A stretch of DNA of 64,000 bases. Source: an uncultured virus (IMG/VR IMGVR_UViG_3300021599_002910) (taxonomy: Duplodnaviria; Heunggongvirae; Uroviricota; Caudoviricetes). The stretch lies in the IMG/VR virus record IMGVR_UViG_3300021599_002910, positions 62,001 to 126,000 of that record. The stretch is one strand, 5' to 3'. A program made the position numbers and the translations under genes. Under the pieces are notes generated by a model. It was given only the letters and a program-made list of their open reading frames with translations, did not search any database and was not told the DNA's origin. Positions 3,372 through 54,757 of the stretch are shown piece after piece (the first letter of the stretch is position 1; each line of letters opens with the position of its first letter).

Positions 3372-3843
3372 CTTCAGTGATTTTAGTAATTATTGAATCA
3401 GAGTTTTCTATAACCATTGTGTGAATACTTCCGGTTCCAAAGTTTAGTTCAGAGTCTGTAATTTCGGAATCCCAATATAAGTCCATAGGACTAAATTCTG
3501 ACTCTTCCTCTTCAGTCAATGGTTCTTCCCACTCAATATTTGTTACGTCAACGTCGCCGTCCGTAGATGTCTCTATTGACAAATCAGGAAAGTCCACATC
3601 TTGCATTTCGATTAGGTCTTTTGATTCCAAAAGTTCTAAAAGTTCAGAAACAACAAATTGTTCACAAACAAGGCTGGCACCTCTCCAAGTGGTTTCAGTA
3701 TCACAGGTAAATGTTTTATCAAATTTGGAACCTGTGTGGTAACAAATTTCGAGTAATGACTTTCTATAAAGGTCAATTGTAACTTTTACGTAATCATCGG
3801 AATTTAGTTTTTTTAATTCCTCGATTGCATTTTGATTTTTCAT
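3361..3843 (-). CDS. hypothetical acidic protein
   Basis: 160-aa ORF whose start overlaps the upstream gene's stop. Confidence 0.7.
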   Translation of the reverse strand: MKNQNAIEELKKLNSDDYVKVTIDLYRKSLLEICYHTGSKFDKTFTCDTETTWRGASLVCEQFVVSELLELLESKDLIEMQDVDFPDLSIETSTDGDVDVTNIEWEEPLTEEEESEFSPMDLYWDSEITDSELNFGTGSIHTMVIENSDSIITKITEDEK

Positions 3844-39324: not shown

Positions 39325-39426
39325 ATGAAACAACTTTTTGTTAATACGAATTTAGTGTTCAGACCTACAACACCTAATGGTGATGGGGGTAATCTATGCT
39401 TAGATTCAGATACAGATGTAGGATAA
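39325..39426 (+). CDS. putative leader peptide of tRNA array 1 (33 aa)
   Basis: MKQLFVNTNLVFRPTTPNGDGGNLCLDSDTDVG*; TATTTAT at 39312-39318. Confidence 0.65.
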   Translation: MKQLFVNTNLVFRPTTPNGDGGNLCLDSDTDVG

Positions 39427-39447
39427 TAAAAAACAAAGCCAAACATT

Positions 39448-39481
39448 AAAACCCTGAATCTTGAAAGTTCGGGGTTTTTTT
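39448..39481 (+). terminator. intrinsic terminator / putative attenuator before tRNA array 1
   Basis: AAAACCCTGAA/TTCGGGGTTTT stem plus T-run. Its 5' arm CTGAATCT is complementary to AGATTCAG (39402-39409) in the leader. Confidence 0.75.
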
Positions 39482-39499
39482 ATTACCTTTGTTTAATAA

Positions 39500-39573
39500 T
39501 GGGAAGTGGCTCAGCCCGGTAGAGCACCTGGTTTGGGACCAGGGGGCCGCAGGTTCGAATCCTGTCTTCCCAA
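39500..39573 (+). tRNA. tRNA-Pro(TGG)
   Basis: Cloverleaf; CCTGG-TT-TGG-GA-CCAGG. Confidence 0.95.
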
Positions 39574-42259: not shown

Positions 42260-42301
42260 TTCATTTGTTTTTTCAATACTGATTCCTTACTTTTGTTTTA
42301 T

Positions 42302-42388
42302 ACCTTGGTGGCGAAATCGGTATACGCGCAAGACTTAAAATCTTGTGGACAGAAAATGTCCGTGTGGGTTCAAGTCCCACCTGAGGTA
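42302..42388 (+). tRNA. tRNA-Leu(TAA)
   Basis: Cloverleaf with long variable arm; CAAGA-CT-TAA-AA-TCTTG. Confidence 0.93.
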
Positions 42389-42504
42389 ATGAAATTGGAT
42401 TTGTTGTTGGGAGAGTTTATAATAGTATGACCCAAGAAGAAATAAATGATTTCATAAAAGGGTTTGAACACGGAGTTTCTCTAACAAACGGAACTCACTA
42501 AAAT

Positions 42505-42585
42505 ACCCCGATGGCGTAATGGTAGCCGCGTTGGTCTTAGGAACCAATGACTTCGGTCGTGAGAGTTCGAGTCTCTCTTGGGGTA
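42505..42585 (+). tRNA. tRNA-Leu(TAG)
   Basis: Cloverleaf with long variable arm; TTGGT-CT-TAG-GA-ACCAA. Confidence 0.93.
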
Positions 42586-42596
42586 CAGAAAAATAA

Positions 42597-42627
42597 TTTG
42601 ATTTTTAAAAGAGATTTACTATATTTG
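42597..42627 (+). promoter_or_regulatory. Bacteroidota-type promoter upstream of leader 2
   Basis: TTTG (42597-42600) and TATATTTG (42620-42627) match the -33/-7 consensus. Confidence 0.55.
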
Positions 42628-42644
42628 TAGTAATTATAATAATA

Positions 42645-42725
42645 ATGAGAACAATAGTGCGTAATAAAGTCTATAGTAAACAACAAGAGATTTGTTGGTT
42701 TAAGACACGCGCTGTAGTCTCATGA
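42645..42725 (+). CDS. putative leader peptide of tRNA array 2 (26 aa)
   Basis: MRTIVRNKVYSKQQEICWFKTRAVVS*. Confidence 0.65.
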   Translation: MRTIVRNKVYSKQQEICWFKTRAVVS

Positions 42726-42758
42726 GATAGCCTATAATTCCTGAAGAGTTATATATAC

Positions 42759-42800
42759 AAACCTCGGACTACAGAAATGAAGTTCGGGGTTTTTTTATTT
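42759..42800 (+). terminator. intrinsic terminator / putative attenuator before tRNA array 2
   Basis: AAACCTCGGACT/AGTTCGGGGTTT stem plus T-run. GACTACAG (42767-42774) is complementary to CTGTAGTC (42712-42719) in the leader. Confidence 0.75.
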
Positions 42801-42812
42801 AAGGAGTTTTTG

Positions 42813-42823
42813 GTTCTTTGAAA
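42813..42823 (+). promoter_or_regulatory. boxA-like antitermination element
   Basis: GTTCTTTGAAA; the same 11-mer lies just upstream of the tmRNA. Confidence 0.5.
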
Positions 42824-42848
42824 TAATGGTTGTAAGTTTGTAATTCTT

Positions 42849-42920
42849 GGCCCCGTCGTCTAAAGGTTAGGACGCCACCCTTTCACGGTGGAGATTTCGG
42901 TTCGAGTCCGTGCGGGGCTA
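42849..42920 (+). tRNA. tRNA-Glu(TTC)
   Basis: Cloverleaf; CCACC-CT-TTC-AC-GGTGG. Confidence 0.93.
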
Positions 42921-42927
42921 CAAATTC

Positions 42928-43000
42928 AGTCTCTTAGCTCAGTTGGAAGAGCACTTGCCTTACATGCAAGGTGTCGTAGGTTCGATTCCTACAGGGACTA
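42928..43000 (+). tRNA. tRNA-Val(TAC)
   Basis: Cloverleaf; CTTGC-CT-TAC-AT-GCAAG. Confidence 0.93.
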
Positions 43001-43005
43001 CAAAT

Positions 43006-43079
43006 GGTGACGTAGCTCAGTTGGGCTTAGGCGGAAGTCTGCAAAACTTTCTACGTAGGTTCGATTCCTATCCTGACCT
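43006..43079 (+). tRNA. tRNA-Cys(GCA), with two acceptor-stem mismatches
   Basis: GAAGT-CT-GCA-AA-ACTTT; U73; acceptor GGTGACG/CCTGACC has G:G and C:C mismatches. Confidence 0.75.
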
Positions 43080-43085
43080 CAATAA

Positions 43086-43159
43086 TGGAATGTAACTCAG
43101 TTGGTTAGAGTGCTAATCTGATACGTTAGATGTCGGCGGTTCGAATCCGCCCATTCCAA
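43086..43159 (+). tRNA. tRNA-Ile(GAT)
   Basis: Cloverleaf; CTAAT-CT-GAT-AC-GTTAG. Confidence 0.92.
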
Positions 43160-43173
43160 CAAATAAAATTGTT

Positions 43174-43698
43174 ATGAGACGTAAAATTATTTTTATTGAT
43201 GTAGATGGACCACTGGCATGGGGAACTTGGGGTGATGGGAGAGTTACGCTGAACGAACACAGTAAAACTTTTACAATCCCTTACCCATGGGTTGAAGATG
43301 ATTGTCAAGCACTTCAAAAAATTTGTGATGAAACAAACGCAAGTTTAGTTGTGAGTTCGGATTGGAGAAAACATTTCAGTTTTATACAATTAAAACGTAT
43401 TTTCCAATACTATGGTGTAACAGCTCCGATTGTAGATATCACAACCCATCAGGACCTTTGGAATAAACTTAGTAGACCTTCAATTGAGTGGGAAAGAGCA
43501 GCAGAAATCACAAAGTGGGTAAAAGATAATAAAATCTCAAATTGGATTTCAATCGACGACATGAAACTTGATGGTCAATATAAATGGATGAAACCAAGAG
43601 TTCCGATGTGGAGACACGTTCAGGTAGATGGTGACTTCGGGTATGGTGGTAGATTAAGAGATAAAATAGATGAATGTATAAAAAAACTTGAGAGATAA
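43174..43698 (+). CDS. HAD-superfamily phosphatase (Swiss-Army-knife RNA-repair-type HAD)
   Basis: IIFIDVDG.L, LVVSSDWR, R..EI..W, WISIDD. Confidence 0.8.
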   Translation: MRRKIIFIDVDGPLAWGTWGDGRVTLNEHSKTFTIPYPWVEDDCQALQKICDETNASLVVSSDWRKHFSFIQLKRIFQYYGVTAPIVDITTHQDLWNKLSRPSIEWERAAEITKWVKDNKISNWISIDDMKLDGQYKWMKPRVPMWRHVQVDGDFGYGGRLRDKIDECIKKLER

Positions 43699-43726
43699 TT
43701 CGTTATCTTTGTATAAATAAAAAATT

Positions 43727-44275
43727 ATGAAAATCAATAGAGCGGATTTGTTATGGTTCCTGAATAACATCCGAAGAAAACAAGAAGGAAAAGAACTAAG
43801 TGATGAGATGCTTGTTGACCACTTAGCGCATTACATGGAGGCAAATCCAAGATGTGTTGATATGTTAGGTGTAAGCACTCGTGGTAGATTCAGTTATTCA
43901 ACTGTGGGATATGGTGTATTTTCACTCATGGGTGAAAAATACAGAATGGGTAGAATCGAGGTTTTCGACAGTAAAAATGAAAGTGGATATCAGGTTCATG
44001 AAGGAATCTACACAATGCCTTATGAATCGGCAAGTCAATTCGAAGATTTTATCGAATCCTTGGAAACTGACTTACCAATAAACATAGAGATAGGTTCTCA
44101 CAACTGGTGTGAAGAGGAATGTGCGAAATCATTAGGTTTCAAAGATTCCGATGAAATGAGAGACCCCGATAAAGTGAAAGAATATACTCGGAAAAAAAAC
44201 GATGAGTATGCTCGTGAACAAGGATATGAAGATTGGGATGACTTACTCTCTAAAAGTAAATGGACGAAAAAATAA
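43727..44275 (+). CDS. hypothetical protein
   Basis: 182-aa ORF; TATCTTTG upstream. Confidence 0.7.
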   Translation: MKINRADLLWFLNNIRRKQEGKELSDEMLVDHLAHYMEANPRCVDMLGVSTRGRFSYSTVGYGVFSLMGEKYRMGRIEVFDSKNESGYQVHEGIYTMPYESASQFEDFIESLETDLPINIEIGSHNWCEEECAKSLGFKDSDEMRDPDKVKEYTRKKNDEYAREQGYEDWDDLLSKSKWTKK

Positions 44276-44280
44276 GTCAC

Positions 44281-44353
44281 GCGTGCGTAGCTCAATTGGT
44301 AGAGTACTAGTCTCCAAAACTAGGTGTTGTAGGTTCGAGTCCTACCGTGCGTG
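44281..44353 (+). tRNA. tRNA-Trp(CCA)
   Basis: Cloverleaf; CTAGT-CT-CCA-AA-ACTAG. Confidence 0.93.
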
Positions 44354-44358
44354 CAAAT

Positions 44359-44491
44359 AGGTTGATTGGGGAATGGTGATACTAATGACTCGAGAGTGTA
44401 TTTCGGTCTGTATCATCGGAGTTGGGAGAAATACACCTGAGTAATGCCAATCGTAAAAGGAGATGTCCACGCAACCATCTTCTCCTTTCCT
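44359..44491 (+). ncRNA. unknown ~133-nt structured RNA with a potential pseudoknot
   Basis: GATTGG/CCAATC, ACTC/GAGT, GTGTATTTC/GAAATACAC, AAAGGAGA/TCTCCTTT stems; crossing GGTGATAC/GTATCATC pairing. Confidence 0.6.
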
Positions 44492-44495
44492 TAAT

Positions 44496-44577
44496 GGGAG
44501 TATCGCCTAGTGGCAATGGCAGAAGACTGTAAATCTTCCCTCTTTCGAGTTCGTTGGTTCGAGTCCAGCTACTCCCA
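44496..44577 (+). tRNA. tRNA-Tyr(GTA)
   Basis: Cloverleaf with long variable arm; GAAGA-CT-GTA-AA-TCTTC. Confidence 0.93.
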
Positions 44578-44580
44578 CAA

Positions 44581-44642
44581 AAATGATTGAAGTCCTGAGT
44601 GGTGTCAGGAGGAAGTAACACAACCAAGTGTAACAATCATTT
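44581..44642 (+). ncRNA. unknown 62-nt three-way-junction RNA
   Basis: AAATGATTG/CAATCATTT closing stem; TCCTGA/TCAGGA and ACAC/GTGT hairpins. Confidence 0.55.
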
Positions 44643-44644
44643 AA

Positions 44645-44718
44645 GGACCCTTAGCTCAGTTGGTTAGAGCGGCTGACTCATAATCAGTAGGTCCACGGTT
44701 CAAGTCCGTGAGGGTCCA
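44645..44718 (+). tRNA. tRNA-CAT (probably Ile2; elongator Met not excluded)
   Basis: GCTGA-CT-CAT-AA-TCAGT; paired G1-C72, so not fMet; GGACCCT acceptor resembles Ile2. Confidence 0.85.
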
Positions 44719-44723
44719 CATTA

Positions 44724-44794
44724 TATCCTCTGGTGTAACGGTAACACAATTGGTTTTGGTCCAATTATTCAAGGTTCGAATCCTTGGGGGATAA
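44724..44794 (+). tRNA. tRNA-Gln(TTG)
   Basis: Cloverleaf; ATTGG-TT-TTG-GT-CCAAT; U1-A72. Confidence 0.92.
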
Positions 44795-44889
44795 CAAATT
44801 TTTATTATGAATAATATTTGTGGAATTCACGGAACACTTTTAGACAAAGACGGACTTTGTCCGAAATGTTTAGAAGAAAATAACAGATA

Positions 44890-44962
44890 GGTCTTATCGT
44901 ATAATGGATGAATACACTTCGCTACGGACGAAGAAATTTGGGTTCGAATCCTAGTAAGACCT
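44890..44962 (+). tRNA. tRNA-Arg(ACG)
   Basis: Cloverleaf; CTTCG-CT-ACG-GA-CGAAG. Confidence 0.92.
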
Positions 44963-44974
44963 CGTAAGTAATAT

Positions 44975-45048
44975 GGTGAACGTAGCTCAGTTGGAAGAGC
45001 ACTAGCTTGTGGCGCTAGTTGTCGTGGGTTCGAACCCCATCGTTCACA
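44975..45048 (+). tRNA. tRNA-His(GTG)
   Basis: CTAGC-TT-GTG-GC-GCTAG; G-1 present; discriminator reads A rather than C. Confidence 0.88.
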
Positions 45049-45052
45049 CAAA

Positions 45053-45137
45053 GGAGAGTTGCCTGAGTGGTTAAAGGAGCAGTTTGCTAAACTGTGGTCG
45101 AGCAATTGGCCTATTGGTTCGAATCCAATACTCTCCG
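45053..45137 (+). tRNA. tRNA-Ser(GCT)
   Basis: Cloverleaf with long variable arm; GCAGT-TT-GCT-AA-ACTGT. Confidence 0.93.
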
Positions 45138-45238
45138 CAAAAAAAAGTTTACACTGCTAATTGACGATTCTGAAAAACTTTTCTATATTTATAAACTCAA
45201 GACGTTATTAAAACATTAACAAAAAAAACAAAAAGAAA

Positions 45239-45432: not shown

Positions 45433-45463
45433 TAAAAAACCCCTCATTTGAGGGGGTTTTTTT
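45433..45463. terminator. bidirectional intrinsic terminator
   Basis: AAAAAACCCCTCA-TT-TGAGGGGTTTTTTT between convergent genes. Confidence 0.8.
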
Positions 45464-54283: not shown

Positions 54284-54292
54284 AATCTGCTG

Positions 54293-54685
54293 TGGAGAAG
54301 ACGGGAGTCGAACCCGTGTCTTGTTCGCGACAACTATAAGTGACTACACGTTTATTACAACATTGTTTCTCAATGTTCCGAAATATTAGGTTTGATATAT
54401 GTGAGAAACCCACCTACAAACAACTTGGTCTCAGAATTATTTTAAACGAGCTCTGACCTGTGACCCGTATATTGGACTTCTGTTCCTAGGTTAATGTCCT
54501 AACCGACCCGAGTGTCGTGACTTAAATTAAGCAACAACAGTAGCTTCTTCAGCGATTAAACCGATAGCAGCCATCTTAGCAAAAGTATTGCCATTTGTTT
54601 TTTCAAATCAGTTGATAAAGGAGTTAACTCAGCTCCTACGTGCCACCTATAACTACACACGCCAATCAATTGCCATGACTTCCCC
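54293..54685 (-). ncRNA. ssrA: tmRNA
   Basis: 5' GGGGAAG pairs with 3' CTTCTCC (G3:U70); T-arm GGGTTCGACTCCC; tag ORF at 54592-54527 reads GNTFAKMAAIGLIAEEATVVA*. Confidence 0.92.
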
Positions 54686-54757
54686 AATATTTTCAAAGAA
54701 CACAACAAAGATATACATAAATATTAAATTTCCAAATTAAAAGTCTATTTATACGAT

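Follow-up and report, generated by a model that had tools for sequence, protein, structure and literature searches.

A predicted codon-matched leader-peptide attenuator in front of tRNA genes of a giant phage

We analyzed a 64,000-nt stretch of DNA from an uncultured Caudoviricetes virus (hereafter the window), which corresponds to bases 62001-126000 of the 137-kb IMG/VR record IMGVR_UViG_3300021599_002910 (CheckV completeness 45%); since near-identical relatives measure 317-321 kb, its source is a giant phage, in this case from freshwater. According to ARAGORN and Rfam, the window contains 21 tRNA genes and one transfer-messenger RNA (tmRNA) gene, and a 26-codon open reading frame (ORF), here called leader 2, precedes a group of these tRNA genes. 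Three features coincide at this site: the ORF itself, three alternative RNA helices marked by conservation or covariation, and a match between the codons of the ORF and the tRNAs encoded downstream. Judged from these sequence features, leader 2 is probably a trp-type, four-region leader-peptide attenuator, codon-matched to the phage tRNAs on whose transcription it would act. The coordinates of all elements are collected in Table 1.

ARAGORN identified 11 same-strand tRNAs downstream of leader 2, namely Glu, Val, Cys, Ile, Trp, Tyr, CAT, Gln, Arg-ACG, His, and Ser-GCT. The original prediction, made from the sequence alone, had proposed that the leader codons serve 10 of these 11 tRNAs, and this count was confirmed under strict wobble rules (Met being served by the start codon), with His alone unmatched. 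The additional proposal that the codons fit the encoded isoacceptors stood in part: AGT and CGT/CGC are present as expected, but one of the two Ser codons (the last) is TCA, and one of the three Arg codons is AGA. Enrichment over shuffled controls had been named as a test of the prediction, and coverage of at least 10 of 11 tRNAs exceeded chance in all three controls applied, with P ~0.001 for random codons drawn from the long ORFs of the window, P = 0.0013 among 3148 real 25-codon gene windows, and P = 0.015 in base-composition-preserving shuffles kept open in frame. The base-composition control thus weakens the statistic from ~0.001 to 0.015; the codon coverage of leader 2 is more than chance, though it is a post hoc pick.

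The RNA spanning positions 42630-42800 has a predicted minimum free energy (MFE) of -47.6 kcal/mol (z = -5.65), and none of 200 shuffled sequences folded as well. Region 2 has two alternative partners in this RNA, region 1 and region 3. The original prediction held that CTGTAGTC, beside the stop codon, pairs with GACTACAG in the terminator, and the two segments (42712-42719 and 42767-42774) are indeed complementary. The TGA stop codon (42723-42725) lies at the 3' edge of region 2, and CTGTAGTC ends 3 nt ahead of it. Moreover, the 5' arm of the terminator, CCTCGGACT (42762-42770), shares GACT with GACTACAG. The terminator stem comprises 10 pairs, and its tail, GTTCGGGGTTTTTTTAT, also ends a second leader of the window, leader 1, which is described below. 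Region 1, which completes the four-region layout, had not been noticed in the original prediction, and neither had a promoter-like site behind the terminator (P2) nor two deleted tRNA genes, Phe and Lys.

Relatives of leader 2 were collected with two kinds of search. When the HAD protein encoded behind the leader was used as an anchor, 60 viral loci were retrieved, 29 of them with a plus-strand tRNA-Glu; among these 29, 19 bore a leader, one held a decayed copy (L043), and nine had no leader and carried a proximal promoter-like box only. Exact scans with the 18-nt core of the leader returned 26 viral matches, 24 of which were true leaders, and 119 metagenome matches, 47 of which passed the terminator filter. 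Deduplication left 47 distinct ATG-to-terminator sequences encoding 37 distinct peptides of 26-30 amino acids, and the alignment of these 47 variants (A2) has a mean column identity of 77%. The first downstream tRNA is tRNA-Glu in 43 of the 47; three flanks are too short, and in the remaining variant, L010, it has been replaced. At that locus (L010:3537-3685) the leader is retained, and both tRNA-Glu and half of P2 have given way to other sequence.

Comparative alignment of homologous leaders, which the original prediction had suggested as a check, revealed that the ORF, the stop codon after the antiterminator arm, and the competing terminator are conserved in the 47 relatives. None of the 47 sequences has a stop in frame 0; by comparison, 118 stops occur in frame +1, which is never open, and 110 in frame +2, which is open in a single sequence. 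Column entropy climbs over codon positions 1, 2, and 3 (5.9, 8.0, and 11.0). Insertions and deletions shift the C-terminal frame between groups of relatives, so that the peptides end in ...VVS*, ...VVR*, ...CSSDV*, ...CGSVV*, or ...SSDGRF*; the nucleotides GTAGT(T/C) are retained despite these frame shifts, and the stop codon falls 0-10 nt past region 2 in all groups. This pattern suggests that the ORF is kept for being translated across the RNA element and not for its C-terminal product. The block YSKQQEICW, to which the original prediction had given particular weight, turned out to be conserved only in its second part: QQEICW is invariant, while YSK varies (Y/F/I/K, S/C/I/V, and K/Q/H/E/S/N/R at the three positions).

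The antiterminator, formed by alignment columns 69-79 with 128-138, consists of 11 pairs, five of which have changed on both sides, and 92.5% of its cells are paired. At its pair 70-137, 30 rows have UA, 15 have CG, and one has UG, with no row unpaired, and pair 100-112 of the apical hairpin 2 is found as UG, CG, and UA among the relatives. Slid controls of the whole structure gave 33-45% paired cells. In the terminator, columns 124-133 pair with columns 146-155 in every cell of 46 distinct rows, and the 3' arm is almost invariant. Since columns 128-133 are common to the antiterminator and the terminator, the two helices are mutually exclusive. In a single register, the helix between regions 1 and 2 (1:2) has 74% of its cells paired and four pairs changed on both sides; this register suits groups A and C, while group B uses a different one (GAACTAC with GTAGTTC), so that 74% understates pairing in group B. 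One variant, L250:642-790, joins a group-A ORF to a group-B terminator and still pairs at 7 of 8 positions. A pseudoknot between region 2 and the loop of the intact terminator was also considered and was discarded in view of the covarying pairs 77-79 with 128-130, which overlap with the stem of the terminator.

In folding predictions, the full-length MFE structure forms the terminator in 47/47 relatives, and the representative folds that were printed also contain the 1:2 hairpin, while the isolated segment comprising regions 2 and 3 folds as the antiterminator in 47/47. Mean predicted energies over the 47 variants are -21.5 kcal/mol for the 1:2 hairpin, -16.8 kcal/mol for the antiterminator, and -17.9 kcal/mol for the terminator, and these modeled values correspond to the thermodynamic layout of a classical attenuator. 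The invariant apical hairpin inside the ORF may, speculatively, be a pause element that synchronizes ribosome and polymerase.

The codon match also holds in the relatives and, together with the compensatory changes in the antiterminator, it supports the attenuator interpretation of the original prediction. Each of the 47 variants was represented by its longest-flanked locus, in which tRNAs were called by ARAGORN. Among same-strand downstream tRNAs, 214/216 have their amino acid in their own leader and 213/216 a cognate codon, versus 51/100 and 30/100, respectively, for same-strand upstream tRNAs. The downstream mismatches concern His in the window's group, Ser in L038, and a Val codon in L270, and three loci with 14 downstream tRNAs each (L008, L068, and L070) are matched 14/14. 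The conserved leader residues are M1, H7 (45/47), I8, S11, Q13, Q14, E15, I16, C17, and W18, and these residues correspond to the tRNAs repeatedly encoded downstream of the leaders (E, C, H, I, W, M, Q, and S); by chance, at least 9 of 10 conserved residues would fall in this set with a probability of 1.9e-4, and 10 residues would include all of E, C, H, I, W, Q, and S with a probability of ~1e-5. The codon of S11 is AGT in 37/47 variants, which fits the downstream tRNA Ser-GCT. Furthermore, codon 8 is ATA in 36/47 leaders, and two CAT tRNAs follow the leader in some relatives.

Relatives with an identical leader reveal that the window has lost tRNAs matched by leader 2. In L004-L007, tRNA-Phe and tRNA-Lys stand between Val and Cys, and a 154-nt deletion in the window (43006-43080 versus L004:3679-3907) takes out these two leader-matched genes and fuses the first ~17 nt of tRNA-Phe to the body of tRNA-Cys. 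On reading its sequence, the chimeric tRNA-Cys has two acceptor-stem mismatches, and its Rfam score of 40.8 bits is the lowest of the tRNAs here because of the Phe-Cys fusion. The chimera could have arisen naturally, by deletion, or in the assembly, through a collapse of similar tRNA genes. If Phe and Lys are counted, leader 2 covers 12 of 13 tRNAs (P = 0.0006 with random codons, 0/3148 gene windows, and 0.006 in shuffles). In addition, the identical-leader relatives have a tRNA-Arg(TCT) after tRNA-Leu(TAA) (L004:2871-3178), which is absent from the window at 42389-42505, where the spacer after tRNA-Leu(TAA) measures 115 nt versus 306 nt in those relatives. The second codon of leader 2, AGA, is the codon of this missing tRNA.

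Leader 1 is a paralogous module in front of another tRNA cluster, and its codon content follows that cluster. Pro, Asn, Asp, Gly, and Thr codons account for 18 of its 32 non-start codons, a value reached by 0/8000 composition-preserving shuffles, and a Fisher test of leaders 1 and 2 against the codons of clusters 1 and 2 gave p = 0.0008. One relative of leader 1 carries a compensatory change, with AGATTCAG/CTGAATCT replaced by AGGTTCAG/CTGAACCT. A search for the leader 1 motif in viral contigs yielded 114 stretches, of which eight passed the terminator filter; five were distinct and four were true variants, whose downstream tRNAs are codon-matched 5/7, 4/4, 5/5, and 5/5. The remaining match, L189, was rejected as a chance occurrence. 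Several relatives have no leader 1 and only the proximal promoter box before tRNA-Pro.

Promoter-like sites flank leader 2 on both sides. The motif TTTG-N17-22-TAnnTTTG, which we take to be the Bacteroidota promoter consensus, occurs 17 times in the window versus 5.6 +/- 2.5 times in shuffled sequences. One copy, P1, lies upstream of the leader and another, P2, between the terminator and tRNA-Glu, and further copies stand directly before tRNA-Leu (42264-42295) and the tmRNA gene (54706-54736, minus strand). In 44/47 relatives a -7 box precedes the ATG, at a distance of 6-8 nt in 26 and of 16-17 nt in 18, the other three having no motif or too short a flank; with the box so close to the ATG, the leader mRNA should be leaderless or nearly so. 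A -7 box also follows the terminator within 70 nt in 43 of the 44 relatives with enough flank. Contigs assembled from RNA libraries span the leader, the terminator, and tRNA-Glu in three of four runs (X4, 42613-42846; X5, 42669-42924; X7, 42657-42890), while the X1 contigs miss the leader; these contigs may derive from DNA and, being assemblies, show neither transcript starts or ends nor regulation.

We propose the following mechanism. Transcription would start at P1, and the short-leadered or leaderless mRNA would be translated at once. A ribosome arriving unhindered at the stop codon would cover region 2, leaving regions 3 and 4 to form the terminator, and transcription would end at 42797. 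Termination would likewise be the outcome without translation of the ORF, since region 1 would then pair with region 2. If a ribosome stalls in the ORF at a hungry codon, roughly codons 2-16, for want of any of the tRNAs called for, region 1 would be masked and region 2 left free to pair with region 3; the terminator would then not form, and the polymerase would pass P2 into tRNA-Glu and the genes beyond. We infer translation of the ORF, ribosome stalling, read-through, and the addition of read-through to P2-driven expression from the arrangement described above. Because the leader has a codon for almost every gated tRNA, the switch would constitute a negative feedback on decoding capacity, slow reading of a leader codon leading to more phage tRNA. 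A more elaborate version, which we consider possible but hold only tentatively, is that the leader is a one-codon-per-tRNA checklist that co-evolves with the gated tRNAs; as a multi-input OR-gate, it would register the loss of any one of ~8-14 tRNAs, whereupon replacement tRNAs and the RNA-repair-type enzyme would be made, and leaders 1 and 2 would be two sensors with disjoint codon sets, each controlling its own block.

Leader-peptide (class I) attenuators are classically known from the enterobacterial trp, his, leu, thr, ilvGMEDA, and pheA operons. The phage leader resembles them in its short ORF, here predicted to be translated, in its intrinsic terminator with a U run, and in the arrangement by which 1:2 plus 3:4 pairing would terminate and 2:3 pairing would read through; its stop codon likewise lies where a ribosome completing the ORF would mask region 2, and the ORF mixes codons for multiple amino acids, as do the multivalent thr and ilv leaders. 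In contrast to class I attenuators, it would gate tRNAs and an RNA-repair-type HAD protein instead of biosynthetic enzymes, it lacks codon runs and offers each of ~8-14 amino acids just one or two codons, and its mRNA is predicted to be near-leaderless, with a Bacteroidota-type promoter and a second promoter past the terminator. The E. coli pheST attenuator, with its pheM leader, provides a case of leader-peptide control over a component of the translation apparatus that senses charged tRNA supply; it differs from the phage leader in being cellular and in acting on the synthetase of a single amino acid and not on tRNA genes. T-box riboswitches share the logic by which tRNA status selects a terminator or an antiterminator before translation-related genes, but they bind tRNA directly and need no ORF, whereas the phage leader has a conserved one. 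The T-box covariance model gave no match at the gathering score in the window, nor at E values up to 10 in 42560-42860. The Sinorhizobium system rnTrpL/peTrpL is reported to be one in which both the terminated attenuator RNA and the leader peptide can act in their own right (PMC7968998); there, unlike in the phage, the leader precedes trp biosynthesis genes.

Database searches returned no described counterpart of the leader. At the gathering score, Rfam detected only tRNAs and the tmRNA and no leader family in the whole window, and at E values up to 10 its best match in 42560-42860 scored 25.9 bits against a threshold of 70. A blastn search of the GenBank phage collection with 42300-45200 gave tRNA-length matches only and no homologous leader. 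Representative prokaryote genomes contained 45 exact core matches, of which 0/45 lay near a terminator or a hairpin-2 motif, so these were attributed to chance. The full-text literature searched held no description of leader-peptide attenuation of tRNA genes, although subscription journals are thinly covered there and absence from print is unproven. The sole paper retrieved in which a tRNA operon, a leader peptide, and an attenuator all occur names the tRNA operon in passing only.

Several observations weigh against an attenuator that gates the tRNAs. P2 is a consensus site past the terminator, of the same type as those before tRNA-Leu and the tmRNA gene; consequently, the tRNAs need no read-through, and the switch would at most modulate or add to basal expression. 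Attenuators usually have no promoter between terminator and genes, a trait that is customary for the family and not strictly defining, and here such a site is present, while the leaderless relatives carry the proximal promoter only. Leader 2 of the window has no His codon despite the tRNA-His downstream, it offers one or two codons per sensed amino acid without the runs of classical attenuators, and the tRNAs for conserved Thr and Asn codons near its start lie upstream, in the other cluster. The decayed copy in L043, upstream of a tRNA-Glu at 3710, keeps hairpin 2 and the terminator and has lost the ORF and the core. Most homologues were found through the exact core motif, so core invariance among them is partly by construction; in the nine leader-bearing variants found independently of the core, via the neighboring protein, it is identical save for GAG/GAA. 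Finally, the relatives are akin, so counts such as 213/216 are not independent events, and the informative part of the codon counts is the contrast between downstream and upstream tRNAs.

In an alternative that we consider unlikely, although it is the strongest competitor, P1, the ORF, and the terminator form an independent mini-gene that makes a micropeptide and/or a ~150-nt trans-acting small RNA, the terminator insulating it and the tRNA-Leu unit from a P2-driven operon. P2 is a full consensus site just ahead of tRNA-Glu, its -33 element abuts the T run of the terminator in several relatives, leaderless relatives use the proximal promoter alone, and rnTrpL/peTrpL offers a precedent for attenuator-derived RNA and leader peptide with trans functions (PMC7968998). 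Such a mini-gene would leave unexplained why a covarying helix competes with the terminator, why the C-terminal frame changes over retained nucleotides, why the ORF codons track the downstream and not the upstream tRNAs, and why leader and tRNA-Glu are linked as one block in nearly all relatives. The codon tracking also bears on a somewhat less probable reading, according to which the switch is real but generic, sensing ribosome availability or movement (for instance during host shut-off or a ribosome-targeting defense) and not particular tRNAs, with the codon match as a by-product. The presence of only single codons per amino acid, a default fold that terminates when the ORF is untranslated, and leader codons for Thr, Asn, AGA-Arg, and TCA-Ser, which belong to tRNAs outside the gated unit, would all agree with it. 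It is opposed by the downstream versus upstream codon match, by the coincidence of the invariant residues with the recurrent downstream tRNA set, and by leader 1, whose composition is different and specific to its own cluster; moreover, at loci with long flanks, leaders contain Phe codons wherever a tRNA-Phe lies downstream and less often elsewhere.

That the ORF arose by chance next to an ordinary terminator of the tRNA-Leu unit is strongly disfavored and, in our estimate, very improbable. Short ORFs occur frequently, and transcripts from upstream would be ended by the terminator in any event, but this ORF has stayed open in all 47 diverged copies, in contrast to the other frames with their many stops, a conserved promoter stands just upstream, and the alternative helix displays compensatory changes. 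The codon-matched attenuator is the reading we favor.

To our knowledge, how phages regulate their many tRNA genes is largely unknown, and phage tRNAs are currently discussed as an aid to codon usage and as a counter to host tRNA-cleaving defenses. If the attenuator operates as proposed, tRNA supply would regulate itself via a switch written in the codons of the very tRNAs that it precedes, and classical attenuation would extend from amino-acid biosynthesis to tRNA genes. The attenuator would also represent a simple, portable sensor of decoding capacity, and its OR-gate version would detect tRNA loss through host shut-off, codon mismatch, or anticodon-nuclease defense; the 47 natural variants already constitute a mutational series.

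Table 1. Coordinates of the leader elements, promoter-like sites, and putatively gated genes in the window
Feature	Position	Strand	Description
P1, promoter-like site	42597-42627	+	TTTG-N19-TATATTTG; ends 17 nt ahead of the leader 2 ATG
Leader 2 ORF	42645-42725	+	26 codons plus TGA; peptide MRTIVRNKVYSKQQEICWFKTRAVVS
Region 1 (anti-antiterminator arm)	42645-42662	+	first 18 nt of the ORF including the start codon; pairs with region 2 in the MFE fold
Apical hairpin	42681-42698	+	CAACAA-GAGAT-TTGTTG(G); encodes codons 13-18 (QQEICW)
Region 2	42708-42724	+	last ~17 nt of the ORF; pairs with region 1 or, via CTGTAGTC (42712-42719), with region 3
Hairpin 2, apical part of the antiterminator	42733-42753	+	TATAATTC-CTGAA-GAGTTATA
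Region 3	42760-42774	+	terminator 5' arm plus GACTACAG (42767-42774), partner of region 2
Region 4	42781-42796	+	terminator 3' arm AGTTCGGGG (42781-42789), then T7
P2, promoter-like site	42809-42840	+	TTTG-N20-TAAGTTTG; between the terminator and tRNA-Glu, 8 nt ahead of tRNA-Glu
Gated unit	42849-45138	+	tRNAs Glu, Val, Cys (chimeric), Ile; two ORFs; tRNAs Trp, Tyr, CAT, Gln, Arg-ACG, His, Ser-GCT
ORFs inside the gated unit	43174-43698 and 43727-44275	+	the first is HAD_SAK_2
Leader 1 module	39325-39485	+	before tRNAs Pro, Asn, Asp, Gly, Gly, Thr, Ala
Leader 1 ORF	39325-39426	+	33 codons; peptide MKQLFVNTNLVFRPTTPNGDGGNLCLDSDTDVG
Leader 1 region 2	39402-39409	+	AGATTCAG; pairs with the terminator 5' arm
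Leader 1 region 3	39454-39461	+	CTGAATCT
Leader 1 terminator	39448-39478 plus T run	+	
Leader 1 -7 box	39484-39491	+	followed by tRNA-Pro at 39500

Behind leader 2, the plus strand from 42841 to a terminator at 45440 contains no full promoter motif, and terminator-like matches there are either internal to tRNAs or weak; a single -7 box inside the gated unit, at 43704, has poor -33 spacing. With no full promoter and no convincing plus-strand terminator as far as 45440, the 11 tRNAs and the intervening ORFs plausibly form one unit. The first of these ORFs encodes 174 amino acids and matches the Pfam family HAD_SAK_2 (E = 8.8e-20), which describes the HAD domain found in 'Swiss Army Knife' RNA repair proteins; its synteny with the tRNA cluster extends to relatives sharing as little as ~64% identity. 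The tRNA-CAT (44645-44719) has a paired 1-72 end and no run of three G-C pairs in the anticodon stem, which identifies it as a non-initiator; presumably, it may be an Ile2-type tRNA that reads ATA.

Other features of the region were noted in passing. Between tRNA-Gln and tRNA-Arg, a 27-codon ORF at 44807-44890 (MNNICGIHGTLLDKDGLCPKCLEENNR) contains two Cys pairs and is reminiscent of a mini-zinc-ribbon. The gap between tRNA-Trp and tRNA-Tyr (44357-44495, 140 nt) has the highest or near-highest depth of the RNA-library contigs, up to 196 in X7, and one contig of a relative omits exactly this gap (joint 44356 to 44495). Neither Rfam nor ARAGORN gave a match in 44357-44495, and its fold z-score is only -0.85; this segment may be an abundant small RNA or an insertion. 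Outside the tRNA clusters, the phage tmRNA at 54292-54736 (minus strand) scores 76.4 bits in Rfam, carries the tag peptide AEEATVVA, and is preceded by a consensus promoter-like site ~20 nt upstream.

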